Assembly: GCA_039025855.1 (NCBI GenBank)
Contig: JBCCNL010000001.1
Coordinates: 106,988-170,987, forward strand
Origin: Planctomycetota bacterium
GTDB lineage: Bacteria; Planctomycetota; Phycisphaerae; Phycisphaerales; Phycisphaeraceae
Length of the DNA stretch: 64,000 nucleotides
Reading direction: 5' to 3'
Under the pieces are notes generated by a model, which had not been told where the DNA came from, ran no database searches, and saw nothing but the letters and a program-made list of their open reading frames with translations. Both the position numbers and the translations under genes were made by a program. Shown here in pieces: positions 27,703-47,057 of this stretch. Position 1 is the stretch's first letter, and each line of letters begins with the position of its first letter.

Positions 27703-27705
27703 GGG

Positions 27706-28497: not shown

Positions 28498-29960
28498 GAG
28501 GGCACCGCCGACAACGCCTCGTCTGGCTGGGCGTGCCGGATCACTTTGCCCAACGCCGTGCGCGGCAGGTGTTCGCAGGCGAAGGTGCGCGGCACCTTCC
28601 ACGGCGCAAGGTGGTGCCGGCAGTGGCGTCGCAGTTCGGCCGCCGTCGGCGGGGCGTCGTCGTCGGTCGGCTCGATCACCGCGTTGAGCCGACTGATCGT
28701 GTGGTTCAGCCGCTCCTCACCGACGAGCGCTTCGCGGACGCCGGGGTGCAGCCGAAGGATGGCCTCGACCTCCATCGGGTTGACCTTGTTCGCACCGACA
28801 TCGATCAGCAGCTTCCGCCGTGCGACAAACCGGAAGTGCCCGTCGCGCCCGCGCACCCCCAGGTCGCCCGTCAGGAAACATCGCCGCCCCGCGATCTCAG
28901 TAAATGGAGGCTCGTGCTCGGCCTCGCCCAACGCGTCGATGTAGCCCGTCATCAGCGACGGGGCATCGACCGCGATCTCGCCCGTCATGCCGTCCGAGAC
29001 CGGCACCCGGCTGTCCGGATCCACGATGTGCATCGCCACCCCCGGCATCGGCCGCCCCAACCACCCGGCATCGTGCCCCGGCTCATGTGGGTCCGCCAAA
29101 CAGACCGAGCCCATCTCCGTCGCCCCGTAGTAGTTCGCCGCTTCAAGCCCGAGCTTGTCCCGGCAGGCATACCACAGCGGCTCGGGCAGCGTCGCACCCG
29201 CACAAAGCAGGCGACGCAGCGTCGGGAACGCCGGCTCACCCGGTTCGCCGCGGTGCATCTGCACGAGCATGTCGACCATGGCCGGGACCGCCGGCAGGAT
29301 CGTCGCACCGGTCTCATGGATCCGCTGCGCCAACCGGTCCGGCGTGAACGCGTTCTCCAGCTCGACACGCGACCCCGCCAACAGCGGCGCAAGCAGCCCC
29401 GCCTCCAGCCCATACGCATGGGTCAACGGCACCGCCGCAAACACGGTGTCGCCAGCCAGGTACCCCACCGACGTGCAGACCTGACACGCCACCGCGTCCA
29501 CCGCCGCCGCCTCCCGCCGCACCACCTTCGAACCGCCAGTCGTGCCCGATGACGGCAGCGCCAGCCAGCCGCGTAGTTCGACCGGTCCATCCGTCCGCTG
29601 CGTGTCCAACGAGGCCCCCTCCGCCACCGACTCCTCCACACGCACCGTCACCCCAACACCCGCCTGCTGCGCCACGCGCCGACGCTCCGCGTCCGGCAAG
29701 CGATCCGACATCGGCAACACCCCATACCCCAGATGCCACAACGCAAACAGGTGCACCACCATCCCCGGCGTCGAGCCGCCCACCAGCCCGACGGGCCGCG
29801 CCGCGTCCGGCCCGGGCAGCTCCGACGCCAACCGCTCCGCGCAGCCCAGCACCAGGCCCGGCAGCTCCCCGTAGCTCACCTCCACCTCACCCAGCCGCAG
29901 CAGAACCCCGGACGGCGACCGCTGCGCGTGCTGTTGAATCGCCTGACTGATCCCTTGCAT
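28494..29960 (-). CDS. AMP-dependent synthetase/ligase (aryl/acyl adenylating enzyme)
   Basis: Motifs LPSSGTTGGSKVV, NYYGATEMG, FLTGDLG, KLLIDVGANKVNPMEVE, PRTALGKVIR. I prefer the ATG at 29960 (MQGISQAIQQ). Confidence 0.85.
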   Translation of the reverse strand: MQGISQAIQQHAQRSPSGVLLRLGEVEVSYGELPGLVLGCAERLASELPGPDAARPVGLVGGSTPGMVVHLFALWHLGYGVLPMSDRLPDAERRRVAQQAGVGVTVRVEESVAEGASLDTQRTDGPVELRGWLALPSSGTTGGSKVVRREAAAVDAVACQVCTSVGYLAGDTVFAAVPLTHAYGLEAGLLAPLLAGSRVELENAFTPDRLAQRIHETGATILPAVPAMVDMLVQMHRGEPGEPAFPTLRRLLCAGATLPEPLWYACRDKLGLEAANYYGATEMGSVCLADPHEPGHDAGWLGRPMPGVAMHIVDPDSRVPVSDGMTGEIAVDAPSLMTGYIDALGEAEHEPPFTEIAGRRCFLTGDLGVRGRDGHFRFVARRKLLIDVGANKVNPMEVEAILRLHPGVREALVGEERLNHTISRLNAVIEPTDDDAPPTAAELRRHCRHHLAPWKVPRTFACEHLPRTALGKVIRHAQPDEALSAVPS

Positions 29961-30266
29961 AGCTCTACTGTTGAAGCGAACCGGAGGCCGCCCCCAGAAT
30001 ATGGCAGAGCAGCGTTTTCCGCCAAATCGCCATGGCCCACCCAGTACAGCACGCAAACGCCCCGCAACCCCCAGCAGGCCCCGCAAAGCCCCAGAAACGC
30101 CTGAATGACCCCTGTTCGTGTCAGACGTGCAACAGAGGGGTCTGCTAGATTGATCCGCGGCAGAGGGGGGGCCTCCCCCCAGCCGATTGACGGATGTTCA
30201 ACCCGTTCCGCGGGTTCTCAGGTCGATCACCGCGTCCCTGCCGCGCCCGCTCCGGAGAGGTGTCCC

Positions 30267-30917
30267 ATGGCCGACTTCATCACAGCCTGCACGCAGAGCC
30301 CCACCAACCTCGTGTTGTCCGTGCTCCTGGTGCTCATCATGCTGTACTGGATCGTCGTCATCATCGGGGCCGTCGGCATGGACAGCCTCGACTTCGATTT
30401 CGACTTCGACGGCGATGTCGACCTCGCCCTCGACGGCCACACCAGCCTCTTCGGCGCAGGCATCGGCCTCTCGTTCCTCCGGTTCTTCCACGTCGGCACC
30501 GTGCCGCTGCTCATCCTGGTCTCCGTCTTCGTCCTCATGATGTGGGCCATCGGCGTGATCAGCTACCCGCTCATTGGCAACTGGGGCATCCTCCTCCAAC
30601 TGCTCATGCTGGTCCCCTTCGCGATCGGCGCAATCCTCCTGACCAAAGTCCTCACGCTGCCGCTTCGTGTCTTCTTCGACAAGCTCAAAGCCCAGGAAGC
30701 CGCCGAGCAAAGCGTCAACCTCATCGGCCAACGCTGCGAAGTCGTCTCCCTCACCGCCACCCACCGGCACGGGCAGGTCAAGGTCGCCACCGACGGCTCC
30801 CCCCTGCTGCTTAACGTCGTAACCCCCGACGAATCGATCACCCTGAACAAGGGCGACGAAGCCGTATTGATCTCCCAGGACGCCGACTCAAGCGTCTTCA
30901 CCATCCAGGGGTTTTAA
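30267..30917 (+). CDS. YqiJ/NfeD-like membrane protein (TM helices, acidic loop, C-terminal OB-like domain)
   Basis: MADFITACTQSPTNLVLSVLLVLIMLYWIVVIIGAVGMDSLDFDFDFDGDVDLALDGH..., then three more TM helices. The C-terminus, LIGQRCEVVSLTATHRHGQVKVATDGSPLLLNVV, resembles an NfeD-type OB fold. The gene lies immediately upstream of a flotillin gene. The track start is 30105; I prefer the ATG at 30267. Confidence 0.6.
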   Translation: MADFITACTQSPTNLVLSVLLVLIMLYWIVVIIGAVGMDSLDFDFDFDGDVDLALDGHTSLFGAGIGLSFLRFFHVGTVPLLILVSVFVLMMWAIGVISYPLIGNWGILLQLLMLVPFAIGAILLTKVLTLPLRVFFDKLKAQEAAEQSVNLIGQRCEVVSLTATHRHGQVKVATDGSPLLLNVVTPDESITLNKGDEAVLISQDADSSVFTIQGF

Positions 30918-30941
30918 ACCCCCGCTCCGGAGCACACTGCC

Positions 30942-33059
30942 ATGCTGCAACTCCTACCAACCCTCGGCCTCGCCACGCAGACGATGTTCGTCCTCGTTGT
31001 GGCCGGCATCGTCGGCTTCATCCTCGTCGTCGCGATCGTCGCCACCGTCGCCAAGTTCTACGTCAAGGTCGAGCCCGGGACCGCACTGGTCCGCCGCGGC
31101 CAGGGCGGCGGCCAGGTGTCCTTCAACGGCAAGCTGGTCATCCCCATCGCCCACCGCGCCGACATCATGGACATCTCCGTCCGGCGTATCGAGATCTACC
31201 GGCACGGCTCAGAGGGCCTGATCTGTAAAGACAACGTCCGCGCCGACATCAAGGTCGCCTTCTTCGTCCGCGTCAACAACGTCGACAAAGACGTCCTCCA
31301 GGTCGCCGACTCCATCGGCGTCAAGCGTGCGTCCCAGCTCGACGCCCTCGTCGAGCTCTTCGACGCCAAGTTCTCCGAAGCCCTGAAAACCGTCGGTAAG
31401 AAGTTCGACTTCACCGAGCTCTACACCGAACGCGAACGCTTCAAAGACGCCATCCTCGAACACCTCGGCACCGACCTCAACGGCTACGTCCTAGACGACG
31501 CCGCGATCGACTACCTCGAACAGACCGAACTCGGCAAGCTCGACCCCAAGAACATCCTCGACGCCGAGGGCATCAAGAAGATCACCGACCTCACGGCACG
31601 CGAAGCGATCCTTGCCAACGACATCTCCCGCGAGAAAGAAAAGACGATCACCAAGCAGGACGTCGAGGCCCGCGAGGCGATCCTCGAGCTCGAGCGCCAG
31701 CAGGCCGAGGCCGAGGCCAAGCAGGCCCGCGAGATCGCCACCGTCCAGGCCCGCGAGCAGGCCGAGTCCCAGAAAGTCGAAGAGGAGGAGCGGTACAAGT
31801 CGGAGAAGGCCCGCATCGCAACCGAAGAAGAGCTCGGTATCGCCGAAGAAAACAAGCTGCGGCAGATCCTCGTCGCCCAGCGGGCCAAGGAACGCACCGA
31901 CGCGGTCGAGACCGAGCGTGTCCAGCGTGAGCAGGGCCTCGAGATGACCGAACGCGAGCGCGTCGTGGAACTGGCCCGGATCGAGAAGGAGACCGCCCTT
32001 GAGGTCGAACGCAAGAAGATCCAGGACGTCATCCGCGAACGCGTGGTGGTCGAGCGGGCGGTGGTCGAGGAAGAGCAGAAGATCAAGGACACCGAAGAGA
32101 TCATGACTGCCGAGCGGGCCAAGAGCGTGCAGGTCACCACGGCCACGGCACAGGCGGAAGAAGAGAAGATCAAGGAAGTGAAGAAGGCCGAGGCCGCGAA
32201 GCTGGCGAGCCAGTTCGAGGCCGACGAGATCCTGATCGAGGCCGAGGCCAAGCGGGCCGCGGCTGAGAAGGAAGCGCTGGCCAAGATGAAGCTGGCCGAG
32301 GCCCGTCAGGCCGAAGCCGCCGCGGACGGCCTCGCCGAGGCCGAGGTCATGGACGCCAAGGCCGGGGCCGTTGAGAAGTACGGCACCGCCGAGGCCGAGG
32401 TCGTCCAACGCAAGCTCGAAGCCGAGGCCAAGGGCGACTTCGCCAAGGCCGAGGCCATCAAGGCCAAGGGCAGCGCCGAGGCCGACGTCATGCAGGCCAA
32501 GTACGCCGCCGAGGCCGACGGTGTCGCCGGCAAGGCCGAGGCCATGAAGAAGCTCGACGGTGTCGGCAAAGAACACGAAGAGTTCAAGCTCAACCTCGAC
32601 AAACAGCTCCAGGTCGAGCTCAAGCAGATCGACATCCACAAGGACATCGCGGCCGAACAGGCCAAGGTGCTCGGCGAAGCGCTCAAGTCCGCCAACATCG
32701 ACATCGTCGGCGGCGAGTCCGAGTTCTTCGACACCATCATCCACGCGATCACCAAGGGCAAACAGGTCGACCGGCTCGTCGACAACTCCGACCACCTCGC
32801 CCGGCTGTCCGACTCGCTCCTGTCCAGCAACGGCGACGGCACCACCCTCGCCGACCGTATCGGCGACTTCGTCTCCCGCTCCGGTATCGACAGCGACGAC
32901 GTCAAGAACCTCTCGATCGCCGCGCTCATCGGCAAGATGATCGCCGACTCCAGCGACCAGGGCGTCGTCAACGAGCTCAAGAACCTGCTGAGCCTGTCCA
33001 AAGCCGCCGGGTATGCCGACCAGAAACTCGCCAGCCTCGGCGTCAAGGCCCGCGCCTGA
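30942..33059 (+). CDS. Flotillin-like SPFH/Band-7 protein (YqiK-like) with long Glu/Ala-rich coiled coil
   Basis: N-terminal TM helix, then an SPFH pattern: KFYVKVEPGTALVRRGQGGGQVSFNGKLVIPIAHRADIMDISVRRIEIYRHGSEGLICKDNVRADIKVAFFVRV. The EA-rich flotillin-type coiled coil spans about 31.6-32.55 kb. Confidence 0.85.
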   Translation: MLQLLPTLGLATQTMFVLVVAGIVGFILVVAIVATVAKFYVKVEPGTALVRRGQGGGQVSFNGKLVIPIAHRADIMDISVRRIEIYRHGSEGLICKDNVRADIKVAFFVRVNNVDKDVLQVADSIGVKRASQLDALVELFDAKFSEALKTVGKKFDFTELYTERERFKDAILEHLGTDLNGYVLDDAAIDYLEQTELGKLDPKNILDAEGIKKITDLTAREAILANDISREKEKTITKQDVEAREAILELERQQAEAEAKQAREIATVQAREQAESQKVEEEERYKSEKARIATEEELGIAEENKLRQILVAQRAKERTDAVETERVQREQGLEMTERERVVELARIEKETALEVERKKIQDVIRERVVVERAVVEEEQKIKDTEEIMTAERAKSVQVTTATAQAEEEKIKEVKKAEAAKLASQFEADEILIEAEAKRAAAEKEALAKMKLAEARQAEAAADGLAEAEVMDAKAGAVEKYGTAEAEVVQRKLEAEAKGDFAKAEAIKAKGSAEADVMQAKYAAEADGVAGKAEAMKKLDGVGKEHEEFKLNLDKQLQVELKQIDIHKDIAAEQAKVLGEALKSANIDIVGGESEFFDTIIHAITKGKQVDRLVDNSDHLARLSDSLLSSNGDGTTLADRIGDFVSRSGIDSDDVKNLSIAALIGKMIADSSDQGVVNELKNLLSLSKAAGYADQKLASLGVKARA

Positions 33060-33114
33060 CCCGGCCGTTCTTCACGCATCCGCTGAGCTGCACCCGCCGT
33101 GCCCAGAGTAATCG

Positions 33115-36100
33115 ATGGCTGAAACTCCAGAAGCCACATCCGAGGCCCTGCCGGAGGACCCCACCCCGTCCCAGGGTCCGAGCCACGACCAGATCGACCA
33201 GGGCGCCTACGAGGTCATCCGACGCCGGCTCGACACGCACGGCCGGGACCTCCGCACCCGCCTCGATCAGCTCAACGCCCGCCGCAAAGAAGTCTTCGGG
33301 TCCATCGACTTCAAGCTGATCGACAACGAGCGGATCACCACGGGCAACAACTGCGTCCCCCGCGACATCGCCGCCGTCGGCGACCGCTTCCTGATGGGCT
33401 TCAACGTCCACTTCGGGCTCAAATCCCACGTCGAGCTCGACGACGTCTTCGCGATCTACCGGTTCGACGGCAGCACCTTCCACGCCGACGACCTTTCGCT
33501 CCTCGATAACGAAGACTTCGCCAAGGACTTCACCGACCTGTTCCGTTTTTACAAGAACGCCAAGTTCGCCAAGTTCTTCCGCGAAGGCCCGCACGTCTAT
33601 ATGAAGTTCCACGTCGGGCGCGACGTCGATGACTTCAAGGCCTTCAAGTGGGCCATCGAGGGCGAGTCCCTCCGCTACATGGGCAACCGCTCCGACCACG
33701 AGGTCCGCTACCCCGAGCAACACGACTTCACCTGGACCCGCGCGACCCGCGAGATGCAGACCCAGGGCGCGTTCCCGCACTACTCGATCGAAGACATCGT
33801 CTTCGTCGAAGCGACAGGTGGCGACTTCACCATCAAGGTCGAAGACAACAGCAACACCGGCGAGGGCATCTACGTCGAGCCGGTCGAGAACGCCGACCAG
33901 TCCCTCGACGACGCCGAGATCCACTACTGCGTCGTCGGGCACATCGTCCTGCTCAAGGTTCGGCCCTATCAGGAACGCAACTTCCGGTACTACATCTTCA
34001 ACGCCAAGCTCCAGCAGGTGCACCGCGAAGACAGCCTCGGCGAGGCCTGCGTCCTCCTCCCCGAGAGCCACGGCCTAGTCTTCTCCCGCGGCTACTACCT
34101 CGCCTCCGGCAAATACCAACGCTTCCCCGGCATCCCCGACGACCTCATCTTCGAACGCAAGATCTCCGCGCCCAACGGCGAAGACTTCGCCTTCCTCTTC
34201 TATCACCGCCGGCAGGGCATCTACGTCATCCTCGCCTACAACCTGATCGACCAGTCGATCGACACCCCGCTGGTCACCAACGGCTACGCATTCTTCGGCG
34301 ACGGCCGCGTCGTGTTCTTCAAGACCCCCGAAGACGCCGAACCCCAGAAACACCACGCGATCCAGGTCTGGCAGACCCCCTTCGTCGGGCCCAACTACGT
34401 CGCGCCGCCCGGCGAGGAGTCCTACCTCTCGAAGATCGGCAACCGCGACATTGTGCGTGGCATGGCCGAGTGCGTTGAGGTCCTCGAACTGCTCTCCCGC
34501 GAAGACCTCTACTCCGACCTCTACGTCGATCTGGTCAAGACCACCTCCGACCTGCTCGACGCCTACTTCTGGCTCGACCACGACGAGTCAGCCAACCTCG
34601 CCGAGCCCCTGGGCGAGATCAAGACCGCCGCCGAAGCCGCGATCGGCGAGTACGAAAAGGTCACCCGGATCCGCCGAAACACCGAGCGGCAGATCGCTGC
34701 CGTGACCCGCGAGGCCGAAGACCTGGTCAACACCAACGCGACCCGGATCTACGACAACATCCTCGTCTACGTCGAAGCCCTCGCGTCGCTCCGAGAAGTC
34801 CGGGGCAAGACCATCGCGCTCAAGGAGCTGCGTTACGCCGACCTCAAGCACATCGACGAACTCGAAGAGCGGGTCAAGGACCAGACCGCGTCACTGTCGC
34901 AGCGCTGCGTGGACTTCCTGCTCGACGAGAAGTCGCTCACGCCCTACCAGGCCGCCGCCGAGGAGCACGACGCAAAGATCGACAGCCTGACCAAGGCGAC
35001 CGACGCGAAGGAGCTCGCCGAGCTGGTCCAGAAGAGCGCCGACGAGCTCGAGATGCTGATCGAGATCGTCGGCAACCTCCGCATCGAAGACACGACCCAC
35101 CGCACCGAGATCGTCGACAACATCTCAGCGATCTTCGGCCAGCTCAACGCCACCCGCACCCGCCTCCGCAACAAGCAGCAGGAGCTCGGCCGGGCCGAGG
35201 GCGTCTCCGAGTTCAACTCCCAGCTCAAGCTGCTGAACCAGTCTGTCGTCAACTACCTCGACCTGTCCGACGACCCGGAGAAGACCGAGCAGTACCTCAC
35301 GAAGGTGATGGTGCAGATCGAAGAGCTCGAGGGCCGGTTCGCCGAGTTCGACGAATTCGTGATCCAGCTCACCGAGAAGCGGGACGAGGTGTACACCGCG
35401 TTCGAGAACCGCAAGCTCCAGCTGGTCGAGAAGCGGAACAAGCGGGCCGACGCACTCGGCCAAGCGGCGGGCCGCATCCTCAGCAGCATCAAGTCCCGGG
35501 TCGACGGGATGGAGCAGATCAACGCGATCAACAGCTACTTCGCCAGCGACCTGATGATCGACAAGGTCCGCGACATCTGCGAACAGCTGGCCGAGCTCGA
35601 CGACACGGTCCGGGTCGACGACATCCAGTCCCGGCTCAAGGCGATCCGCGAGGACGCTGTCCGCCAGCTCAAGGACCGCCAGGACCTCCAGGCCGACGGC
35701 CGAAACACCATCCGCTTCGGGCGACACGTCTTCTCGGTCAACAACCAGGCCGTCGACCTCACCACGATCACCCGCGGCGGCGAGATGAAGCTGCACCTAA
35801 CCGGCACGCAGTTCTTCGAAGCCATCGAAGACCAGCAGCTGCTGGAAACACAAGACGTCTGGTCGCAGGAGGTCGTCTCGGAAGACACCACGGTCTACCG
35901 CGCCGAGTACCTCGCCTACCTCATGCACGAGCAGCTCACACGCGGCGAACCCGCCGAGCTGCAGGCCTTGCTAAAGGAGACCGACGACGACAGCGACCCG
36001 ATCCTCGACGCGGTGCGGTCCTTCATGGGGCCACGTTACAGCGAGGGCTACACCAAGGGCGTCCACGACGCCGACGCCGCCGTCCTCCTGCGGGCCCTGC

Positions 36101-38661
36101 TCGAGATGCACGGCTCTGTCGGCCTGCTCCGCTACCGCAGCGCCGCCCGGGCCATGGCCGGCTACTGGTGGGCCACGCTCGAAGACCGCCGGCTCCGCGA
36201 ACGCCTCACCCATCAGCTCGCCGGCTTCGGCACCGTCGGCGACGTCTTCGCCTCCGCCACCCAGCAACGCGCCTACATCGACGAGCTGTCCCAACACCTC
36301 CACCGCTTCGCCGAAGGCCTCGACCTTTTCGACGCATCGCTCTCATCAGAAGCGGGCGAGTACCTCTTCTATGAGCTGACCGAACCCAAAGACGGGCTCG
36401 TGGTCAGCCCCGAAGCGGCCGAGCTGTTCGACGCCTTCAACAACCACCTCCGCGGCAACCGCTCGCTGAAAAAGTTCCGCGACTCGATCGAAGCCCTCAA
36501 CGACGCCTGGCTCGCCCGCTTCGGCCTCATCCGCGACTGGGCCCACGCCTTCCTCAGCGAGAGCGACGACTTCCCGTCCGACATCTACCGCCACTACGCC
36601 GACGAGTTGGCCCTGCTCCTGCTGCACGGCAAGCCCCCGACCGACCGCATCCACACCGCGAGCGTCCGCCGTGAGCTCGACGGGCTCATCGGCTCACACG
36701 CCGTGATCGATCAGGGCCAATACAGCCTGGACTACAACGAGTTCCTCGCCCGCCTCCGCCACTTTGCCGGCCACACCGTCCCCCGCTTCGAGGCCTACAC
36801 CCACCTGAAACAACAGCTGCTTGATGCTGCCCGCGACGAGATGCGGCTGGACGAGTTCAAGCCCAAGGTCCTCACGTCCTTCGTCCGCAACCAGCTCATC
36901 GACAAGGTCTTCCTCCCACTGATCGGCGACAACCTCGCCAAGCAGATGGGCACCGCCGGGACGGACACCCGCACCGACCGCATGGGCCTGCTCCTGCTCA
37001 TCTCCCCGCCCGGCTACGGCAAGACCACCCTCATGGAGTACATCGCCAACCGCCTCGGCGTCATCTTCATGAAGATCAACGGCCCCGCGATCGGCCACTC
37101 CGTCACCTCCATCGACCCCGCCGAGGCCACCAACGCCGCCGCCCGCGAAGAGCTCGAAAAACTCAACCTCGCCTTCGAGATGGGCGACAACGTCGTGATC
37201 TACGTCGACGACATCCAGCACACCCACCCCGAGTTCCTGCAGAAGTTCATCAGCCTGTGTGACGCCCAGCGGCGCATCGAGGGCGTGTACAAGGGCAAGA
37301 CGCGGACCTACGACTTCCGCGGGCGGAAGGTCGCCGTGGTCATGGCGGGCAACCCGTACACCGAGTCGGGCGAGCGGTTCGCGATCCCCGACATGCTCGC
37401 CAACCGGGCCGACACCTACAACCTCGGCGACATCATCGGCGACCACGCCGAGGCCTTCAAGATGTCGTACCTCGAGAACTGCCTCACCTCAAACCCCGCG
37501 CTCAACGCCCTCGCGTCCCGCAGCCAGAAAGACGTCTATGGCGTGATCAAGATCGCGGAGACCGACAGCCGCGACGGCGTCGAGTTCGAGGGCAACTACG
37601 GCCGGGACGAGCTCGACGAAATGGTCAACGTGATGAAGAAGCTCATCACCGTCCGCGACGTCATCCTGAAGGTCAACCTGCAGTACATCGCCTCGGCCGG
37701 GCAGGAAGACGCCTACCGCACCGAACCCCCCTTCCAACTCCAGGGCTCGTACCGGAACATGAACCGCATCGCCGAGCGGGTGGTCCCCGTGATGAACGAC
37801 GCGGAACTGCAAACGCTCATCTCCTCGAGCTACGAGCAGGACGCGCAGACCCTGACAACCGGTGCCGAGGCCAACCTGCTCAAGCTCCGCGAGATGTTGG
37901 GCTGGATCACCGATGAGGAGGCCGAGCGTTGGGACGACATCAAGCGGACATTTGTCCGCAACAACTCGGTCAACGCGCTAGGCGGTGACGACAAGACGGC
38001 CGCGGTGCTGACGCAGATGGCCGGCCTCAATCAGGGCCTCGGCGACATCGGCAGCGCACTGTCGACCGGCCTCGATGCTTTGAAAGATGCGGATGCATCA
38101 ACGGATGAGGCGGAACCGATCGCGATCGATCTCGCCCCGCTCGCCGAGCAGATGGCGTCGTTCGCCCAGGGGCTCACGGGTATCCGCGAAGCCATGGCGA
38201 CTGTCGCCGAACGCGCCGCGGCGCCAGTCCCACAAGCACCCAAGCCCGTACCGCAGAACGGCCCCGTCGAAGCACGTTTCGACCAGGGCACGCTCGACGC
38301 GATCCAGGCCCTCACCCAGCAGATGGCCGAGCAGGCCCGGGCCGCGCCGCACTCGCCCGCTATCAACGGCGAAGTACCCGTCTCGAACCGCCCCACCGAC
38401 GAACCGGACGACCCCCCGCACGAGATCCGCGTGATCAACAAGATCCCCGCGACGTTCCTCTACGTGATGAAGGAGCAGTTCAAGCTGATGCAGGCCTGGA
38501 TGGAGCCGCTGACCCGGATCACCGCCGACCAGGACGACCAACTCAAGCAGATGCGGGGCTCCATCCAGCAGATCGTCTCGCGGTACGACGACATGATCCA
38601 ACGGCTCGAGAAGAAGCGGGCGTCCGCCGGAGACGAGATCGATGACGACGCCGATGCTTAG
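33115..38661 (+). CDS. 1,848-aa protein: N-terminal beta-rich domain, long coiled coil, MoxR/AAA_5-type AAA+ ATPase core, helical C-terminal region
   Basis: Walker A LLLISPPGYGKTTLMEY (about 37006-37029). Walker B VVIYVDDIQH. The MoxR-like segment is VAVVMAGNPYTESGERFAIPDMLANRADTYNLGD. Heptad-rich sequence runs about 34.6-35.7 kb. Clean codon bias throughout. Confidence 0.85.
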   Translation: MAETPEATSEALPEDPTPSQGPSHDQIDQGAYEVIRRRLDTHGRDLRTRLDQLNARRKEVFGSIDFKLIDNERITTGNNCVPRDIAAVGDRFLMGFNVHFGLKSHVELDDVFAIYRFDGSTFHADDLSLLDNEDFAKDFTDLFRFYKNAKFAKFFREGPHVYMKFHVGRDVDDFKAFKWAIEGESLRYMGNRSDHEVRYPEQHDFTWTRATREMQTQGAFPHYSIEDIVFVEATGGDFTIKVEDNSNTGEGIYVEPVENADQSLDDAEIHYCVVGHIVLLKVRPYQERNFRYYIFNAKLQQVHREDSLGEACVLLPESHGLVFSRGYYLASGKYQRFPGIPDDLIFERKISAPNGEDFAFLFYHRRQGIYVILAYNLIDQSIDTPLVTNGYAFFGDGRVVFFKTPEDAEPQKHHAIQVWQTPFVGPNYVAPPGEESYLSKIGNRDIVRGMAECVEVLELLSREDLYSDLYVDLVKTTSDLLDAYFWLDHDESANLAEPLGEIKTAAEAAIGEYEKVTRIRRNTERQIAAVTREAEDLVNTNATRIYDNILVYVEALASLREVRGKTIALKELRYADLKHIDELEERVKDQTASLSQRCVDFLLDEKSLTPYQAAAEEHDAKIDSLTKATDAKELAELVQKSADELEMLIEIVGNLRIEDTTHRTEIVDNISAIFGQLNATRTRLRNKQQELGRAEGVSEFNSQLKLLNQSVVNYLDLSDDPEKTEQYLTKVMVQIEELEGRFAEFDEFVIQLTEKRDEVYTAFENRKLQLVEKRNKRADALGQAAGRILSSIKSRVDGMEQINAINSYFASDLMIDKVRDICEQLAELDDTVRVDDIQSRLKAIREDAVRQLKDRQDLQADGRNTIRFGRHVFSVNNQAVDLTTITRGGEMKLHLTGTQFFEAIEDQQLLETQDVWSQEVVSEDTTVYRAEYLAYLMHEQLTRGEPAELQALLKETDDDSDPILDAVRSFMGPRYSEGYTKGVHDADAAVLLRALLEMHGSVGLLRYRSAARAMAGYWWATLEDRRLRERLTHQLAGFGTVGDVFASATQQRAYIDELSQHLHRFAEGLDLFDASLSSEAGEYLFYELTEPKDGLVVSPEAAELFDAFNNHLRGNRSLKKFRDSIEALNDAWLARFGLIRDWAHAFLSESDDFPSDIYRHYADELALLLLHGKPPTDRIHTASVRRELDGLIGSHAVIDQGQYSLDYNEFLARLRHFAGHTVPRFEAYTHLKQQLLDAARDEMRLDEFKPKVLTSFVRNQLIDKVFLPLIGDNLAKQMGTAGTDTRTDRMGLLLLISPPGYGKTTLMEYIANRLGVIFMKINGPAIGHSVTSIDPAEATNAAAREELEKLNLAFEMGDNVVIYVDDIQHTHPEFLQKFISLCDAQRRIEGVYKGKTRTYDFRGRKVAVVMAGNPYTESGERFAIPDMLANRADTYNLGDIIGDHAEAFKMSYLENCLTSNPALNALASRSQKDVYGVIKIAETDSRDGVEFEGNYGRDELDEMVNVMKKLITVRDVILKVNLQYIASAGQEDAYRTEPPFQLQGSYRNMNRIAERVVPVMNDAELQTLISSSYEQDAQTLTTGAEANLLKLREMLGWITDEEAERWDDIKRTFVRNNSVNALGGDDKTAAVLTQMAGLNQGLGDIGSALSTGLDALKDADASTDEAEPIAIDLAPLAEQMASFAQGLTGIREAMATVAERAAAPVPQAPKPVPQNGPVEARFDQGTLDAIQALTQQMAEQARAAPHSPAINGEVPVSNRPTDEPDDPPHEIRVINKIPATFLYVMKEQFKLMQAWMEPLTRITADQDDQLKQMRGSIQQIVSRYDDMIQRLEKKRASAGDEIDDDADA

Positions 38662-38771
38662 GCCCACCGCTGCCCGCGGGGCTGTCGGCCTCGTGCGTCC
38701 GTGCCCTGCGAGCCGATATAGAATGCGTCCGCAAAACACCCTGCGGTTGCCTTGTTGATAGGAGCTCGAAC

Positions 38772-39593
38772 ATGTTCAAAGCCATCGGCCGATACTTCCG
38801 TGCACTGGGTTACCTCGTCACCGGCCGTATCGACGCCGCCCGCAGCGCCCTGTCCACCAGCCCCCACGTGGTCAACGCGACCTACGACCAGATCATCGAC
38901 GACAAGAAGAAGTCGATCCAGCAATACAAAGACGCCATCGCCCGGCTGATCGTGCAGCACGAGGGCAAGATGTCCAAGATCAAGGACGAGAGCGACTCGC
39001 TCAACCGCCTCGAACAGATGAAGGAAGGCGCCGCCGCCAAGGCCCGCTCCGTGGTGGCCGAGATGAAGGCCACCGGCGCGACGCTCGAGCAGATCAAGGC
39101 CGGCGAGGACTACCAGAAGTGCATGCTCGCCTACCAGGACTTCTCCTCGAAGATCGAAGAGAAGACCCCGCGGATCGCTGAGCTCGAATCCGATGTGAAG
39201 GAGATGGACGCGACGATCTCGGGGCACAAGCTGCAGCTCACCGAGATGCTGCGGGAGATCGAAAACCTCCGCGGCGAGCAGGCCGAGGCGGTCGCCGAGA
39301 TCATCACCGCCAAGGAGACCGCCGAGCTGAACGACATGCTCTCGGGCATCAGCAAGGACCGCACGTCGCGTGAGCTGGCCGACATGCGTCAGCTCCGCGA
39401 GGAGATGAAGGCCAAGGCCAAGGTCTCCAAGGAGCTGGCCGGCACCGACACGAAGGTGCAGGAGGACGAGTTCGTCCGGTATGCCCAGGAGAGCAAGACC
39501 TCCGATGAGTTCGACGCGTTGATCGGGCTGGCTGAAGAAGCGGACAACGCGACCCCCGACAACCCAGAGCGCGAGCCCCGGCTGCCGGAGTAG
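38772..39593 (+). CDS. PspA/IM30-family (ESCRT-III-like) protein
   Basis: N-terminal amphipathic helix MFKAIGRYFRALGYLV followed by about 230 aa of coiled coil organised like PspA (DQIIDDKKKSIQQYKDAIARLIVQHEGKMSKIK...LQLTEMLREIENLRGEQAEAVAEIITAKE). An AGGAG Shine-Dalgarno-like sequence lies 8 nt upstream of the ATG. Confidence 0.7.
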   Translation: MFKAIGRYFRALGYLVTGRIDAARSALSTSPHVVNATYDQIIDDKKKSIQQYKDAIARLIVQHEGKMSKIKDESDSLNRLEQMKEGAAAKARSVVAEMKATGATLEQIKAGEDYQKCMLAYQDFSSKIEEKTPRIAELESDVKEMDATISGHKLQLTEMLREIENLRGEQAEAVAEIITAKETAELNDMLSGISKDRTSRELADMRQLREEMKAKAKVSKELAGTDTKVQEDEFVRYAQESKTSDEFDALIGLAEEADNATPDNPEREPRLPE

Positions 39594-39648
39594 ACCACCA
39601 CTGGTCCAACTCCAGCGGGTGACGCGTGGTGCCTTTGTCCGGTCGTCG

Positions 39649-41436
39649 ATGAATACTCCCCCGCCACAACACGCCTTCTTCAGCGACCTCGCCCGCATGC
39701 TCAACGCCGGGCAGTCGCGCAGTGTCATGCTGACCGGCGAGGTCCACGACCTGTTCTACCTTGAGGCCGCCGACCGCTACGTCCCGCTGGTCCCCTACCT
39801 CTGCCGGCGATGCTCGGTCGAGGGCGTCGTCCCCCTGGTCTACGAGCTCAACGGCCCGATCCGCTGCACCAACGCCGGCGACCGCAGAACCCTCAAAGAA
39901 GCATGGGTCCGCTGGAAGACCGGCCAATCCCTCGACCAGCTCATCCTCCAATCGCTCAACGACGAGTCGGCCCGCCAGCGCCGCGAGTCCCTCGAAGAAC
40001 AGTTCGACCGACTCACCGCCGAGGCCGCCGGCCGACCCACCGCCGCCCTCGAGATGCTTCGGCAACTCACGCTCTGCTCCCGCGCACAAGCGGCACTCGG
40101 CGGCAAGCGGTTCCGGCTGCTCATCCTGGTCGAGGCCGCCGATATGCTCCTCCCCGCGGCCGACGGCGACATCACTCGGCTCAGCGCCAGCGACCGCCAG
40201 CGCGTCGCCATCTGCCAAGACTGGTTCAGCGATCCCGCCTTCATGGAGGGCGACGACAGCGTGGTACTCCTCGCCGAGTCCCGCAGCGCCATCCACCCCC
40301 GCGTCACCCGCCTGCCCCAGATGCTCACCGTCGAGGTCCCTGCCCCCGACGAGGCCCGGCGTGCCTTCTACATCGAACGCTTCACCCGCGACCGCCCGGT
40401 CAAAATCGACATGGGCACCGACGGCCTCGCCCGCCTCTCCGCCGGGCTTTCGCTGCACGCGTTGCGTCAGCTCCTGGTCGCCTCCGCCCACACCGGCACA
40501 TCCATCACCCACCACGCGGTCATCGACCTCGTCGAGCACCACATCACCAGCGCCCTCGGCGAGGGCGTCGTCGAGTTCAGCAAACCCTCGCACACCCTCG
40601 ACGATGTCGTGGGTCACCGCCGGCTGCGCGCGTTCCTCAACGACGAGCTGATCCCCCGCATCAAGTCGACCGGCGAAGACGCCCTGCCCGGCGCCGCGAT
40701 CGCCGGCCCAATCGGCTCGGGCAAGACCTTCGTCTTCGAGGCCGTCGCGGGCGGGCTCGGCCTCCCCGTCCTCGTGCTCAAGAACATCCGCAGCCAATAC
40801 TTCGGGCAGACCGACGTCATCTTCGAGAAGCTCCGACGCGTCCTCGAAGCGCTCGGCAAGGTCATCCTGTTTGTCGACGAGGCCGACACCCAGTTCGGCG
40901 GCGTCGGCGGCGACGCCCACCCCACCGAACGCCGGCTCACCGGCAAAATCCAGGCTTTGATGAGCGACCCCAAGCTCCGCGGCCGAGTCGTCTGGCTGCT
41001 CATGACCGCACGCATCGAACGCCTCAGCCCCGACATCCGACGCCCCGGCCGAGTGGGCGACCTCATCATCCCCGTGCTCGACCCCGCCCCGGGCAGCGAC
41101 GATCGCCGCGACTTCCTCCGCTGGGTCCTCAAGGGCGTCTTCGACCACCCCGACGACGCACTCCTCAATGAACTCGACCAGCTCACCCCCGGCTACTCCG
41201 CCGCCGCCTTCGCCGCCCTCCGCTCACTGCTCAAAGCCAAGGCCGCCGCGCAAGGCCAGCTCGACGCCGCCACCATCCGTGAGGTCGTCGCCGACGTCAT
41301 CCCCGCCGACATCGGCGACCAACGCGAACGCCAGACCCTCCAGGCCCTGCTCAACTGCACCCGCCGATCACTCCTGCCCGACCCGGACATCGACGAGTCC
41401 ACCCGCGAGGCGTGGCGGCGAGCCCTCGGCCAGTGA
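39649..41436 (+). CDS. Tandem AAA+ ATPase: degenerate N-terminal module plus classical-clade C-terminal AAA module
   Basis: C-terminal module: Walker A IAGPIGSGKTFV (about 40705-40728), Walker B VILFVDEAD (about 40861-40887), and second region of homology SPDIRRPGRVGDLIIPVLDP. The N-terminal module has a Walker-B-like FRLLILVEAADML but no GKT P-loop (VMLTGEVHD). The track start GTG is at 39619; I prefer the ATG at 39649. Confidence 0.85.
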   Translation: MNTPPPQHAFFSDLARMLNAGQSRSVMLTGEVHDLFYLEAADRYVPLVPYLCRRCSVEGVVPLVYELNGPIRCTNAGDRRTLKEAWVRWKTGQSLDQLILQSLNDESARQRRESLEEQFDRLTAEAAGRPTAALEMLRQLTLCSRAQAALGGKRFRLLILVEAADMLLPAADGDITRLSASDRQRVAICQDWFSDPAFMEGDDSVVLLAESRSAIHPRVTRLPQMLTVEVPAPDEARRAFYIERFTRDRPVKIDMGTDGLARLSAGLSLHALRQLLVASAHTGTSITHHAVIDLVEHHITSALGEGVVEFSKPSHTLDDVVGHRRLRAFLNDELIPRIKSTGEDALPGAAIAGPIGSGKTFVFEAVAGGLGLPVLVLKNIRSQYFGQTDVIFEKLRRVLEALGKVILFVDEADTQFGGVGGDAHPTERRLTGKIQALMSDPKLRGRVVWLLMTARIERLSPDIRRPGRVGDLIIPVLDPAPGSDDRRDFLRWVLKGVFDHPDDALLNELDQLTPGYSAAAFAALRSLLKAKAAAQGQLDAATIREVVADVIPADIGDQRERQTLQALLNCTRRSLLPDPDIDESTREAWRRALGQ

Positions 41437-41545: not shown

Positions 41546-42712
41546 ATGAAAATCACCGATGTCAAAGTCTGGCTCGTCCGCGGCGTCAAATACAACTGGA
41601 CCCTCCTCAAGGTCTACACCGACACCGGACACACCGGCGTCGGCGAAGCCACCAACTGGCCCGGCTCACCCATCATCGAGGCCGCCGCTAAGCACGTCGG
41701 GCAGCGCGTCATCGGGCTCGACCCCATGCGCACCGACTTCATCTGGACCAAGCTCTACCGCGACCTCAACTGGATCGGGCCCTACGGCGCCAGCCTCTGC
41801 GCCATCTCCGGCCTCGACATGGCCCTGCTCGACCTCAAGGGCAAAGTCCTCGGCACCCCCTGCTACCAACTCCTCGGCGGTGCCTACCGCACCGAGCTCC
41901 TGCTCTACGCCAACTACTGGTTCGATCGCGGCGAACACACCCCCGAGGACTACGCCAAGCAGGCCCAGGCCGTGGTCGACGCCGGCTTCACCGGGCTCAA
42001 GTTCGACCCCTTCGCCCACACCAACTACCTCTACGGCGACCACCTCTCCGACAACCTCACCCTCACCCCCGCACAACAAGACCTCGCCTACAACCTCACC
42101 GCCGCCGTCCGCGAAACCGTCGGCCCCGACTTCGAGATGATGATCGAGACCCACGCCATGCTCAACGGTGACATCGCCGTCAAGATGGCCGAACGCCTCG
42201 GGCCCCTCGGCGTCACCTGGTACGAAGAACCCGCCGGCCCCGAGAGCGCCGAGACCCTCGCCGCCCTCCGAAGGCGCCTGCCCAGCAATATCCCCATCAC
42301 CGTCGGCGAACGCCACTACACCCGCCACGCCTTCCGACCCATCTTCGAGAAGCACGTCTGCGATGTCGTCATGCCCGACGTCACCCGCTGCGGCGGTCCC
42401 TCCGAACTCAAGCGCATCGCCACCATGGCTGAGGCCTACAACGTCCTCATCGCTCCGCACAACCCCAACGGCCCGCTCTGCACCCTCGCCAGCGCCCACG
42501 TCTGCGCGTCGATCCCCAACTTCTTCCGCTGCGAGTTCATGTTCATGGACGTCCCGTGGCGCGACACCGTCATCGACCACCCCCTCGACGTCCGCGACGG
42601 CAAGCTCCACCTCTCCGATCGCCCGGGCCTCGGCGTCGACCTCGTCGAAGACGAGATGGAAAAACACCCCGGCGTCCGCGACGTCAGCGAGATCCACAAC
42701 TTCTACGTCTGA
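41546..42712 (+). CDS. Enolase-superfamily enzyme (mandelate racemase/muconate lactonizing family; sugar-acid dehydratase or cycloisomerase-like)
   Basis: MKITDVKVWLV...LLKVYTDTGHTGVGEAT...ISGLDMALLDLKGKVLGTPCYQLLGG...MIETHA...WYEEP... Confidence 0.85.
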   Translation: MKITDVKVWLVRGVKYNWTLLKVYTDTGHTGVGEATNWPGSPIIEAAAKHVGQRVIGLDPMRTDFIWTKLYRDLNWIGPYGASLCAISGLDMALLDLKGKVLGTPCYQLLGGAYRTELLLYANYWFDRGEHTPEDYAKQAQAVVDAGFTGLKFDPFAHTNYLYGDHLSDNLTLTPAQQDLAYNLTAAVRETVGPDFEMMIETHAMLNGDIAVKMAERLGPLGVTWYEEPAGPESAETLAALRRRLPSNIPITVGERHYTRHAFRPIFEKHVCDVVMPDVTRCGGPSELKRIATMAEAYNVLIAPHNPNGPLCTLASAHVCASIPNFFRCEFMFMDVPWRDTVIDHPLDVRDGKLHLSDRPGLGVDLVEDEMEKHPGVRDVSEIHNFYV

Positions 42713-42715: not shown

Positions 42716-44794
42716 TCAGAAACTCAACCGCTCCGCGTGCTCTTCATCGCGCACCAACACCTGCCGCCGCTGGTGCGTCGCCATGCGTCCCGCCCGACGC
42801 TGCGCCGCCCGGAACAGCCACCCCAACACCCACCCCGGTAGACGCACCGGCACCGACTTCAACAGCCGCCGACGCACCGGCGTGAACTTCACCAGCAGCG
42901 GATCGTCCAGGCTCGTGATCACCGTCGCCGTCCCCGGCTCGCCCTGCCGTGCGCTGCGACCTTCAAGCTGCCGATCTACCCGGCGTGACTCGTGACGATC
43001 CGTCGCAATCACCGCCAGCCCGCCCCGCTCGACCACGCCCTCAGGCAGCTTGATGTCCGTCCCCCGACCCGCCATGTTCGTCGCCACCGTCACCCGCCCC
43101 AGCTGCCCCGCCTCCGCGACAATCGCCGCCTCCTGCTCGTGCAGGTGCGCGTTTAGCACCGCATGCGGAACGCCCGCGCCCGTCAGCCGAACGCTCAGGC
43201 TCTGGCTGTCATCCACACTCCGCGTGCCCACCAGCACGGGCCGACCCGCAGCGTGCATTTCCCTCGTCAGCTCTGTCACCGCGTCCCACTTGGCATCCAA
43301 CGTCGGCAGCGGCCGAACAGTCTGGGTCTCGCGGCGGCATACCCGGTGCGTCGGGATCCGCACCGTCTGCATCCGATAGGTCCGCCAAAGCTCCGCCCGT
43401 TCTCCCCACGCGGTCCCGGTCATCCCGCTCAGCCGGCGGTACAGCCGGAAGAACCGCTGGAAGCTGATCGCCGCCAGCGTGTGGTTCAGGTCGCTGACCT
43501 CCAGGCCCTCCTTCGACTCGACCGCCTGGTGCAGCCCCGCCTGCCACGTGCGGTCGGGCATCAGCCGGCCCGTGCTCTCGTCCACAATCACCACCTTGCC
43601 ATCCTGCACCACGTACTGGTCGTCGCGCAGATACAGGTACTGCGCCACCAACGCCTGATACACCCGCTCTTCCAGGCGACGCACCGGGCTACGGTCCGCA
43701 TCGCCTCTCGAACCCACCAACCGCTTGATGTGTTGCCGACCCGCCTGCGTCAGGCGCAGGTCCCGGTGCCGCCGATCCAGCCGGAAGTCGCGGTCGGGCT
43801 GCAGCCGCGCCGCCAACGCCGTGGCGTCCCGATACGTGAACTCCCGGGCGTCGCCGCCCGGTGCCGTATCCGCCTTCGGCCCCGAAATAATCAACGGCGT
43901 CGTCGACTCATCAAGCAAGATCGAGTCGGCCTCGTCAATGATCGCCGCCTCACCGCGGAAGAACCGGCCCTGCGACCGCGTCGACTCACCCGTCAGGTTC
44001 CGGGCCAGAACCGAAGCGAGCGGCATCGACGCACGATCGGTCTGCGCCTGTTCCTGCAGCAGGTCACGCAGGTAGTCCGCGGCCGCCTCCTTGTGCGTCG
44101 TGTACGTGATGTCGGCCGCATACGCGCTGCCCCGATCGTGAGGCGGCGTGCCACCCGTGATGTAAGCCACGCGCAGCCCCGCGCCGCCAAACAACGGCTT
44201 GGCCCACTGGGCGTCCCGTTTAGCCAGGTAGTCGTTCACGGTGAAGACGTGACAACCCCGGCCGTGCCACCCGACCAGGCAGGCGGCCAGCGCCGCCACC
44301 AGCGTCTTGCCCTCGCCCGTCGCCATCTCCGTCATCCGGCCATCCAGCAACGCCGCGGCCGCCGCGACCTGCACGCGGTACGCATTGAGCCCCAGGGTCC
44401 GCCGCGCCGCCTCCCGGATCAGCGCGAGCGCTTCAACCCGCTGCTCGACCGTGACCGACCCTCGCCGAAACACCGCACGCTGCTCCGCCAGCCGCCCGCT
44501 CAACGCATCGATGTGCAACTCCCTGCACACCGCCTCCTGCGCGAGCACGCGGTCCGCCAAACGCAGATAACGACGCACCGAACACCGCCCCGCAACCAGG
44601 TGCGACGCGACCCACTCGTACACCGCATCGGCATGCCGACGCGGCTTCGCCGGCTGCCGGTTATGCGATCGGCTCCGCCACGCCTCCCCATCACGCCACA
44701 GCTTCGCCAGCGCCGGCGTCTGCAACTCACCCGGCCGCGCTACGCCCACGGGCTGGTTCGGGTCAGACGGGAACAGCGTGGTCAGGCTCGACAT
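42716..44794 (-). CDS. SecA-like DEAD-motor ATPase lacking the canonical SecA C-terminal scaffold, wing and CTL domains
   Basis: Colinear with the SecA NBD1-PPXD-NBD2 region: TEMATGEGKTLVAALAA (about 44298-44326), HVFTVNDYLAKRDAQW, AIIDEADSILLDESTTPLIISGP, NMAGRGTDIKL, GGLAVIATDRHESRRVDRQLEGRSARQGEPG. Only about 50 aa follow NBD2. The ATG at 44794 shares 1 nt with the upstream stop (TGATG). The track start is 44881. Confidence 0.8.
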   Translation of the reverse strand: MSSLTTLFPSDPNQPVGVARPGELQTPALAKLWRDGEAWRSRSHNRQPAKPRRHADAVYEWVASHLVAGRCSVRRYLRLADRVLAQEAVCRELHIDALSGRLAEQRAVFRRGSVTVEQRVEALALIREAARRTLGLNAYRVQVAAAAALLDGRMTEMATGEGKTLVAALAACLVGWHGRGCHVFTVNDYLAKRDAQWAKPLFGGAGLRVAYITGGTPPHDRGSAYAADITYTTHKEAAADYLRDLLQEQAQTDRASMPLASVLARNLTGESTRSQGRFFRGEAAIIDEADSILLDESTTPLIISGPKADTAPGGDAREFTYRDATALAARLQPDRDFRLDRRHRDLRLTQAGRQHIKRLVGSRGDADRSPVRRLEERVYQALVAQYLYLRDDQYVVQDGKVVIVDESTGRLMPDRTWQAGLHQAVESKEGLEVSDLNHTLAAISFQRFFRLYRRLSGMTGTAWGERAELWRTYRMQTVRIPTHRVCRRETQTVRPLPTLDAKWDAVTELTREMHAAGRPVLVGTRSVDDSQSLSVRLTGAGVPHAVLNAHLHEQEAAIVAEAGQLGRVTVATNMAGRGTDIKLPEGVVERGGLAVIATDRHESRRVDRQLEGRSARQGEPGTATVITSLDDPLLVKFTPVRRRLLKSVPVRLPGWVLGWLFRAAQRRAGRMATHQRRQVLVRDEEHAERLSF

Positions 44795-47031: not shown

Positions 47032-47057
47032 TGCAGAACCTCAATCGTCAATCGGCG

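Follow-up and report, generated by a model that had tools for sequence, protein, structure and literature searches.

We analyzed a stretch of 64,000 nucleotides (hereafter, the window) from a Phycisphaeraceae (Planctomycetota) metagenome-assembled genome, which belongs to a marine, uncultured clade, and focused on a block of five co-directional open reading frames (ORFs), named g1 to g5, that spans positions 30267-41436 on the + strand. We are highly confident that this block is a lineage-specific fusion of two modules, each of which is widely distributed, and that its genes encode what is assigned to them here: a YqiJ/NfeD-like membrane protein (g1), a YqiK-type flotillin (g2) and a giant DUF3686 AAA+ protein (g3), which make up module 1, followed by a divergent PspA/Vipp1 homologue (g4) and a tandem AAA+ ATPase (g5). 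An earlier, sequence-only reading of the window had described five same-strand genes at this position with gaps of about 25, 56, 111 and 56 bp. All five ORFs are present on the + strand, and the gaps g1/g2, g2/g3, g3/g4 and g4/g5 are 24, 55, 110 and 55 bp, within 1 bp of those estimates. That observation is real and was read correctly in outline; the membrane-remodelling mechanism attached to the block is something that we infer from its sequences. Database proteins 99-100% identical to g4 and g5 are recorded under "Planctomycetota bacterium", and the nearest loci are from Phycisphaeraceae.

The evidence for a fusion comes from a neighborhood survey of 80 genome loci anchored on g4 and a reciprocal scan of 80 metagenome loci anchored on g5. 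The commonest home of the g4/g5 pair appears to be a seven-gene cluster (context A), which we found in about 23 loci of Planctomycetota, Verrucomicrobiota and Hydrogenedentota (e.g., L031:7342-15577). Its genes encode, in order, an OmpA protein, a transmembrane (TM) and helical protein, the PspA-like protein, a binding protein without a Pfam match, a permease, an ATP-binding cassette (ABC) ATPase and the tandem AAA+ protein, and g5 lies 3.7-3.9 kb downstream of g4, behind the transporter genes. In context B, represented by about 12 loci, the PspA-like and tandem AAA+ genes form a bare dyad with g5 adjacent. The hosts of loci with linked g4 and g5 include Planctomycetota, Verrucomicrobiota, Hydrogenedentota and Nitrospiraceae, and the linkage thus extends far beyond the clade of the window.

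The five-gene form (context C) was found in 19 species-level loci, all from Phycisphaeraceae and only where g4 identity is at least 69%. In all 19, g3 lies upstream of g4; the contigs reach g2 in 15 and g1 in 13, and g5 lies downstream in 17. All five genes are present in 11 loci, in 3 of which the contig end cuts g5. The order is kept while identity falls to 55% for g3 and 40% for g1. Judged by gene order, the arrangement exceeds chance, because it recurs across 19 related loci at falling identity, and the synteny in other genomes on which the sequence-only reading depended is borne out. Six of the loci (L011, L013, L014, L018, L019 and L021) have approximately 1.2 kb more between g3 and g4. 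L011:8752-9750 is a 332-aa ORF with TM helices, a helical domain and no Pfam match, and it occupies the position of the membrane-anchored helical ("Snf7-like") protein of context A. The window has no such ORF, and tblastn searches with the five context A accessory proteins from L031 found nothing in it.

Module 1 occurs in at least five phyla and is often plasmid-borne. With g3 identities of 36-50%, Hymenobacter, Pseudomonas fluorescens, Streptomyces and Deinococcus carry it on plasmids, and it also occurs in other taxa. The Hymenobacter plasmid set comprises a Tir chaperone, a PspA/IM30 protein, a DUF1449 protein, a flotillin-like protein and a "DNA repair ATPase", and g3, g2 and g1 are 50%, 52% and 34% identical to their counterparts in it. 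On P. fluorescens pQBR103, the module 1 trio follows a yjfJKLMC-like set, and on the Streptomyces plasmid, the trio stands alone. From the contexts in the locus survey, we therefore conclude that the block is a lineage-specific fusion of two separately conserved modules. Gene order also indicates at least two independent arrivals of a PspA-family gene beside module 1: as an upstream YjfJ-type gene with CesT/Tir in Bacteroidota and Proteobacteria, and as a downstream gene of the Vipp1-like type in the Phycisphaeraceae block.

The assignment of g4 is the one on which the sequence-only reading had staked its proposal, and it holds at the level of the family profile and fails at the level of the single sequence. 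g4 very probably belongs to the Vipp1/PspA branch as a divergent member and is closer to Vipp1 than to Escherichia coli PspA. Its features are a predicted amphipathic helix at the N-terminus (MFKAIGRYFRALGYL), a predicted helical hairpin of great length and an ELAGTD motif. We built a profile (A3) from 60 diverse g4-family sequences and searched it against 177,635 sequences of solved structures; the top matches were the Nostoc and Synechocystis Vipp1 chains (E=1.6e-7 to 1e-5). The alignment is significant and collinear, pairing query residues 39-95 with Vipp1 residues 30-86 and query residues 132-249 with Vipp1 residues 98-212, including ELAGxD. Among the relatives of g4, PspA_IM30 (PF04012) is the only recurrent Pfam family, with matches at E<0.01 in 16 of 38 sequences (best 4.4e-6); in a second set of relatives, it was found in 12 of 60 at E<0.001 (best 3.4e-7). 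Some relatives already carry a precomputed PF04012 match or a PspA name from their source pipelines. The best of 600 shuffled, composition-matched PspA-like controls reached 5.5 bits compared with 34 bits, and native coiled-coil decoys (flotillin coiled coils) obtained no score with the g4 profile. The AlphaFold2 model of g4 is a helical hairpin with a mean predicted local distance difference test (pLDDT) score of 77.5, for which Foldseek returned Vipp1 (6zvr) as the best match. The family as a whole comprises 596 representative clusters at 50% identity.

Several results weigh against this assignment. The single g4 sequence scores only 16.3 bits (E=0.0077) against PF04012, below the cut-off of 33.9 bits, and with profile A3 the Spike HR1 chimera, a coiled-coil artefact, attains E=6e-6. 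Alignment of the g4 family with hhalign to single sequences of E. coli PspA, E. coli YjfJ and Hymenobacter PspA gave nothing significant, and in hmmsearch, the same three proteins do not exceed the shuffled controls with the g4 profile. A comparison of Hymenobacter PspA with the g4-family profile reached E=0.006 only. In a separate search, the matches of E. coli PspA in a plasmid collection were too uniform for a diverse canonical PspA alignment, with 450 of 458 at least 80% identical to the query.

The C-terminus of g4 is of particular interest. In g4 itself, a DEFDALIGLA motif is followed by an acidic linker and a terminal LPE. Throughout the family, the near-universal pattern is [DE]F[DE]xL[IV]G, then a variable, acidic linker and finally [LI]PE; in nearly all of approximately 115 members, [LI]PE forms the very C-terminus or stops one residue short of it. 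The sole full-length exceptions end in KLRE and belong to L016 and L017 (g4 homologue at 10001-10819), which are also the only two fused-type genomes without an adjacent tandem AAA+ gene. From these sequences, the coincidence of the KLRE tail with the missing g5 looks suggestive, and we propose the [LI]PE tail as a candidate docking element for g5.

g5 was described in the sequence-only reading as a tandem AAA+ protein whose active module is of the classical clade, and the description holds, with the tandem fold supported by the predicted structure. g5 matches Pfam AAA (E=1.3e-14) and the NCBIfam CDC48 subfamily (E=3.7e-17). Its D1 cassette (residues ~9-300) is degenerate and has no P-loop: LTGEVHDLF stands at the P-loop position and VEAAD at the Walker B position, and the Walker A lysine is missing. 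The D2 cassette (residues ~320-560) is of the classical clade and has a Walker A motif (GPIGSGKT), a Walker B motif (FVDEAD, within ILFVDEAD), pore loop 1 (QYFG) and an arginine-finger region (RRPGRVGD); across 40 g5 homologues, GPIGSGKT, FVDEAD, Q[YW]FG and RRPGRVGD are invariant or nearly so. A classical-clade AAA+ protein with pore loop 1 and arginine fingers is thus encoded beside an ESCRT-III-type gene. The AlphaFold2 model (pLDDT 88.1; predicted template modelling score 0.83) has two AAA cassettes from residue ~9 in a Cdc48/p97-like D1-D2 fold, and Foldseek aligned it over its full length (630-690 columns) with Rix7, NVL, p97, Cdc48 and AFG2 (E=3.5e-18 and weaker). The best solved relatives of the g5 profile are VAT, AFG2, Cdc48 and p97 (E=1e-24 to 1e-20), with similarity confined to D2. 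No N-terminal substrate or cofactor domain and no nucleotide-binding D1 were found, and the N-terminal half has no Pfam match.

The comparison with Vps4 in the sequence-only reading survives as an arrangement, an ESCRT-III-type gene beside a classical AAA+ gene, and does not extend to kinship. g5 has no MIT and no Vps4_C match, no Vps4 chain is among its best 60 solved relatives, and its match to CdvC is only E=5.6e-4 (NCBIfam). We therefore rejected g5 as a relative of Vps4 on the missing MIT domain, the two cassettes and its nearest solved relatives, VAT, AFG2, Cdc48, p97 and Rix7.

In module 1, g1 and g2 are what the sequence-only reading took them for. Aligned over its full length, g1 shares 34% of its residues with a Hymenobacter protein annotated as DUF1449 family (E=3e-29), and its alignment with E. 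coli YqiJ is collinear at 25% identity (E=3e-4). Its match to Pfam YqiJ_N (E=6e-4, 20.4 bits) is below the cut-off of 23 bits; profile, homologues and position 24 bp upstream of g2 together place it in the YqiJ/DUF1449 family. YqiJ has been treated as an NfeD homologue (PMC2636767). In g2, a membrane anchor at the N-terminus precedes a Band_7 domain and a long, EA-rich coiled coil, and the C-terminal region is helical. Band_7 was detected (E=2e-11, residues 42-203) only when the N-terminal 253 aa were scanned alone; the full-length scan gave no match in Pfam or NCBIfam, probably because of the composition-bias filter. Over 439 aa, BLASTP gave 29% identity between g2 and E. coli YqiK (E=4e-36), and the identity of g2 to the Hymenobacter homologue extends over the full length, which places it among the YqiK-type flotillin/SPFH proteins.

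g3 belongs to a family of giant AAA+ proteins defined by DUF3686 (PF12458; E=3e-179, residues 45-485), DUF7902 (PF25472; E=1e-24, residues 607-690) and one AAA+ core (residues ~1280-1450; AAA, PF00004, E=1.7e-7; AAA_5, E=2.4e-6), encoded after a flotillin gene. Long helical stretches and a clade-specific C-terminal extension (residues ~1650-1848) make up further regions. The core motifs are a Walker A (SPPGYGKTT), a Walker B (YVDDIQH) and AGNPYTESGERFAIPDMLANRAD. The core is extremely conserved across phyla, and YVDDIQH, with "DD" and not "DE", is invariant. The earlier assignment of this core to MoxR/AAA_5 is right as to an AAA+ core, and MoxR/AAA_5 is one of several candidate clades, since PF00004, AAA_22 and AAA_5 score alike on the same stretch (32, 29.6 and 28 bits; AAA_5 cut-off, 22). 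Among solved structures, the core aligns best with p97 D1 (E=2e-8, 90 residues). The segment NPYTESGE...IPDMLANRAD resembles the MoxR signature, "NP..EG...LP.A..DRF". Neither the full-length g3 profile nor its N-terminal 662 aa alone matched any solved structure.

The C-terminal extension of g3 (~200 aa) contains a conserved segment of ~70 aa, VINKIPATFLYVMKEQF..W.EPLTRITADQ.DQLKQ. All 19 fused-type loci carry the extension; the Hymenobacter, Pseudomonas and Streptomyces homologues and the loci without the flotillin module (contexts A and B) lack it. On this distribution, the extension may be an adaptor between module 1 and the PspA-like module.

Parts of this picture have been published. As the sequence-only reading had surmised, PspA-AAA+ neighborhoods have been noted in comparative genomics: Ravi et al. 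2024 (PMC11237479) described PspA with a two-AAA+-domain protein whose N-terminal domain is inactive, longer operons that add an ABC ATPase, a permease, a PBPB/OmpA protein and a membrane-anchored Snf7-like protein, and CesT/Tir-PspA operons with YqiJ/YuaF, Band-7/flotillin and a beta-propeller/coiled-coil AAA+ protein. Their examples are a Dokdonia operon, the Clostridium dyad AEY64320/1 and the long form of Handelsmanbacteria (OGG56892), and they proposed, from comparative genomics, an ATP-dependent membrane remodelling comparable to Snf7/Vps4 (PMC11237479). The fused five-gene arrangement is not listed in the version of their supplementary table that we consulted. The sequence-only reading knew of no experimental characterization of such a five-gene system; for the PspA/tandem-AAA+ pair, our literature search found no experimental paper, and a proteobacterial operon that contains the flotillin module has been studied experimentally. 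P. aeruginosa bacABCDEF is co-transcribed and was likened by its authors to the CesT/Tir-PspA-flotillin-AAA+ type, and a bacA mutant showed less biofilm formation, rhamnolipid secretion and swarming (PMC10948618). The likeness of bacABCDEF to the block runs through that operon comparison and not through the sequence of BacE.

Compared with the CesT/Tir-PspA operon (Hymenobacter DG25B plasmid), the block has the same order of YqiJ, flotillin and DUF3686 AAA+ genes and likewise includes a PspA-superfamily gene. However, the block has no CesT/Tir (DUF2170) chaperone gene, an AMP-binding gene precedes g1, the PspA-like gene comes after g3 and is of a type other than YjfJ, and the tandem AAA+ gene and the g3 extension are added. 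g4 and g5 share both architectures of the PspA plus inactive/active AAA dyad, as compared by its published description, and the seven-gene cluster of context A is built from the components of the published long form. In contrast to the long form of the Handelsmanbacteria type, the block lacks the transporter, OmpA and TM-helical genes and has the flotillin module attached instead.

The likeness to ESCRT-III/Vps4 (CdvB/CdvC) lies in an ESCRT-III-superfamily gene beside a classical-clade AAA+ gene with intact pore loops, and the conserved short C-terminal motif of g4 could serve like an MIT-interacting motif (MIM); unlike Vps4, however, g5 has no beta-domain, and g4 belongs to the Vipp1/PspA branch and not to the Snf7 branch. 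g5 resembles Cdc48/p97/VAT, Rix7/NVL and AFG2 in its predicted tandem fold over the full length and in its complete D2 motifs, but it differs from these unfoldases in having no N-terminal substrate or cofactor domain and in its D1, where the Walker A lysine and a canonical Walker B are missing. E. coli YqiJ-YqiK is an NfeD-like/flotillin pair of the kind also present in the block. HflK/C-FtsH is an SPFH protein paired with an AAA+ protein, and we also compared Bacillus subtilis YuaF-FloT. In B. subtilis PspA-YdjGHI (SamI), an SPFH protein is reportedly linked to PspA recruitment. In contrast to the SPFH/AAA+ pairs, the AAA+ protein of the block is a soluble protein of 1,848 aa without a protease domain, and its PspA-like protein is of another subfamily.

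Overall, we propose a putative mechanism for the block. At the membrane's inner face, g2 would assemble into an SPFH scaffold or cage. g4 would bind stressed or curved membrane via its N-terminal amphipathic helix and polymerize at or near these flotillin platforms. A g5 hexamer would then recognize the C-terminal tail of g4 and thread g4 subunits through the D2 pore, thereby disassembling or recycling the polymer, which would be a Vps4-like job without homology to Vps4. By analogy with other SPFH/AAA+ pairs, g3 may assemble, remodel or load clients into the flotillin scaffold. We give an even chance to the general proposal that the block is a composite cytoplasmic-membrane maintenance locus assembled from two older, independently conserved modules. 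Remodelling of g4 polymers by g5, as suggested by the motifs of both proteins, falls at or somewhat short of that level. A more specific reading, in which g5 is a bacterial functional counterpart of Vps4 that is recruited by the [LI]PE tail, and in which the pair is coupled to a flotillin cage with a second motor, is tentative; the coupling would perhaps run through the g3 C-terminal extension, giving one machine for membrane repair or vesiculation. That all five proteins would form one machine is, on the gene neighborhoods, doubtful. Our analysis shows the gene content, the domain identities, the integrity of the motifs and the conservation of each module and of the fusion, whereas polymerization, tail recognition, substrate threading, co-transcription and a physical link between the modules are all inferred.

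The main rival is that the block comprises two functionally independent systems that are neighbors by descent only, so that their adjacency has no mechanistic meaning; we consider this unlikely. The observations in its favor weigh against a joint function of the five genes. The two modules are separate in most genomes, with g1-g3 found in 0 of the 80 g5-anchored metagenome loci and in 0 of 61 g4-anchored loci outside the subclade; the linkage of g4 with g5 in the earlier claim of one unit is supported, and the union of all five genes is lineage-restricted. Module 1 of the Streptomyces plasmid has no PspA gene at all. The fusion is limited to loci at or above the g4 identity bound given for context C, and shared descent alone could explain its conservation within one family-level clade. 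L016 and L017 keep g1-g4 without a g5 there, and their genomes carry a second paralogue in a context A cluster elsewhere (L042 and L032); these two genomes are closely related, and therefore, the correlation of the KLRE tail with the loss of g5 is effectively one event. Among the g5-anchored metagenome loci with enough flank, a g4 homologue was found in 20 of 32, and the remaining 12 have no detectable g4 nearby. In addition, the ATPase activity of g3 is not assured, because its Walker B has "DD" instead of "DE". Against descent alone, order and tight spacing persist down to 40% identity for g1 and 55% for g3, g4 stays with module 1 in 19 of 19 loci, PspA-family genes were recruited beside module 1 independently in other phyla, and the g3 C-terminal extension occurs only in fused loci.

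In a second rival, control is reversed: g4 would regulate g5, as E. coli PspA inhibits the AAA+ protein PspF (PMC7619361), and g5 would act on other substrates, such as components of the ABC transporter/OmpA system that usually lies beside it, and would not take g4 polymers apart. In most genomes, g4 and g5 flank a transporter set, with OmpA and a membrane-anchored helical protein upstream, and this arrangement puts alternative g5 clients on offer. We nevertheless regard reversed control as improbable. Searches of Pfam and NCBIfam found no Sigma54_activat domain and no DNA-binding helix-turn-helix in g3 or g5, and membership of either in the PspF-type sigma-54 activators was rejected. g5 keeps a substrate-threading pore loop and arginine fingers, the bare dyad occurs without a transporter in about 12 loci and in this window, and the conserved tail at the extreme C-terminus of g4 looks like a recognition tag.

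A third explanation, that the block is an anti-phage or conflict system, namely, an SPFH/AAA+ abortive-infection module on mobile DNA, is highly improbable. It draws on the frequent plasmid location of module 1, on weak matches of g5 to IetA (E=1e-7 in PADLOC and 0.005 in NCBIfam) and on the guanine-cytosine (GC) content of the block, which is 63-65% compared with 68-70% in the immediate flanks; the whole window ranges from 62 to 72%, and other parts of it are equally low. The IetA matches cover a generic AAA core only (residues 361-434), and the block encodes no IetS-like protease, nuclease or other effector; membership in the Iet (IetA/IetS) system was therefore rejected. PADLOC returned nothing for g1 and g2 and only weak matches (E above 1e-4) to generic AAA+ or coiled-coil models for g3 and g4, and we reject the defense reading because its PADLOC support is limited to such generic matches. 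The flanks encode lipid and polysaccharide metabolism and not a defense island, and there is no integrase or transposase at the block borders. Finally, a reading of g3 as a DNA repair ATPase, with no membrane role for the block, is scarcely credible: PGAP names the g3 homologues of the Hymenobacter, Pseudomonas and Streptomyces plasmids (36-50% identity) "DNA repair ATPase", and Pfam describes DUF3686 as an "ATPase involved in DNA repair", but our Pfam scan detected no DNA-binding or nuclease domain in g3, the gene adjoins and follows a flotillin/SPFH gene in every annotated example examined (3 of 3 plasmids; L167, L168 and L169), and literature searches found no paper on DUF3686 and none about the function of PA3728 among those that mention it. 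The name is probably inherited and misleading.

The coordinates of the block and its immediate neighbors are collected in Table 1. The longest ORF of g1 opens at 30105; we adopted the ATG at 30267 because homologues align from residue 1 of that start. The ORF of g5 opens with a GTG at 39619, and we adopted the ATG at 39649, which is supported by a database protein of identical sequence and 595 aa (P0121). A sigma-70 consensus scan upstream of g1 found no promoter and is uninformative for Planctomycetota. In a scan for intrinsic terminators, terminator-like sites were no more frequent than chance, and alignment of the g3-g4 spacer across relatives revealed no conserved element.

Table 1. Features of the block and its immediate neighborhood (positions in the window)
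Feature	Coordinates	Strand	Description
AMP-binding enzyme ORF	28494-30086	-	divergent neighbor upstream of g1
Upstream intergenic region	30087-30266	+	between the divergent AMP-binding gene and g1; presumed promoter region
g1	30267-30917	+	216 aa; YqiJ/DUF1449 (NfeD-like) polytopic membrane protein whose C-terminal part is a soluble beta-rich domain
g2	30942-33059	+	705 aa; flotillin-like SPFH protein, YqiK family
g3	33115-38661	+	1,848 aa; giant cytoplasmic AAA+ protein, DUF3686/DUF7902
g3 C-terminal extension	38065-38661	+	~200 aa; conserved core at about 38416-38619
g4	38772-39593	+	273 aa; divergent PspA/IM30 (Vipp1-like, ESCRT-III superfamily)
g5	39649-41436	+	595 aa; type-II (tandem) AAA+ ATPase
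MR_MLE-type enzyme	41546-42712	+	unrelated downstream neighbor; adjacency to the block conserved in no relative

Other parts of the window hold features of their own. Directly upstream of the block lies a lipid/polyketide-like gene cluster (14198-30086, mostly on the - strand) that encodes a flavin halogenase-like protein, a ketoacyl synthase, a family-2 glycosyltransferase, an MMPL transporter and the AMP-binding enzyme. The - strand at 42716-49073 encodes a second, short SecA-like ATPase (721 aa) and, directly beside it, a 745-aa protein that weakly matches PqqD and peptidase M50 and an HlyD-type membrane-fusion protein of 671 aa; together they may be dedicated to the export of peptides or proteins. 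Over the - strand ORFs at 4001-8000, strand composition is very uneven, with a GC skew of -0.41 to -0.49 and an AT skew that reaches +0.41; this region includes an ORF without a Pfam match (4401-6044, -, 547 aa) and short C-rich imperfect repeats (4901-5960). The 1,343-aa protein encoded at 9855-13886 (+) joins cadherin-like/Big_9, Calx-beta and PA14 domains to a C-terminal glucose/sorbosone dehydrogenase, which is an unusual adhesin-enzyme combination.

What is new here is the fused arrangement, the [LI]PE tail of the PspA-like family and the clade-specific C-terminal extension of g3; both modules and the idea of Snf7/Vps4-like remodelling have already been published (PMC11237479). The value of the block is limited because the idea is in print and the fusion is confined to an uncultured marine clade. 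Nonetheless, the g4/g5 pair bears on the open question of how PspA/Vipp1 polymers are dismantled in bacteria: according to a 2025 review, a Vps4-like ATPase appears to be absent in bacteria, and none is known for bacterial PspA (PMC7619361). The pair is widespread, and with its intact unfoldase motifs and its candidate docking tail, the question could be put to a direct test in vitro. The fused version places a flotillin scaffold and a second motor in the same small cluster, which is convenient for co-expression, and the fusion itself argues, on genomic grounds, for SPFH platforms and ESCRT-III-like polymers acting in concert. If the tandem AAA+ protein is indeed the bacterial answer to Vps4, the interest of this system would be high.

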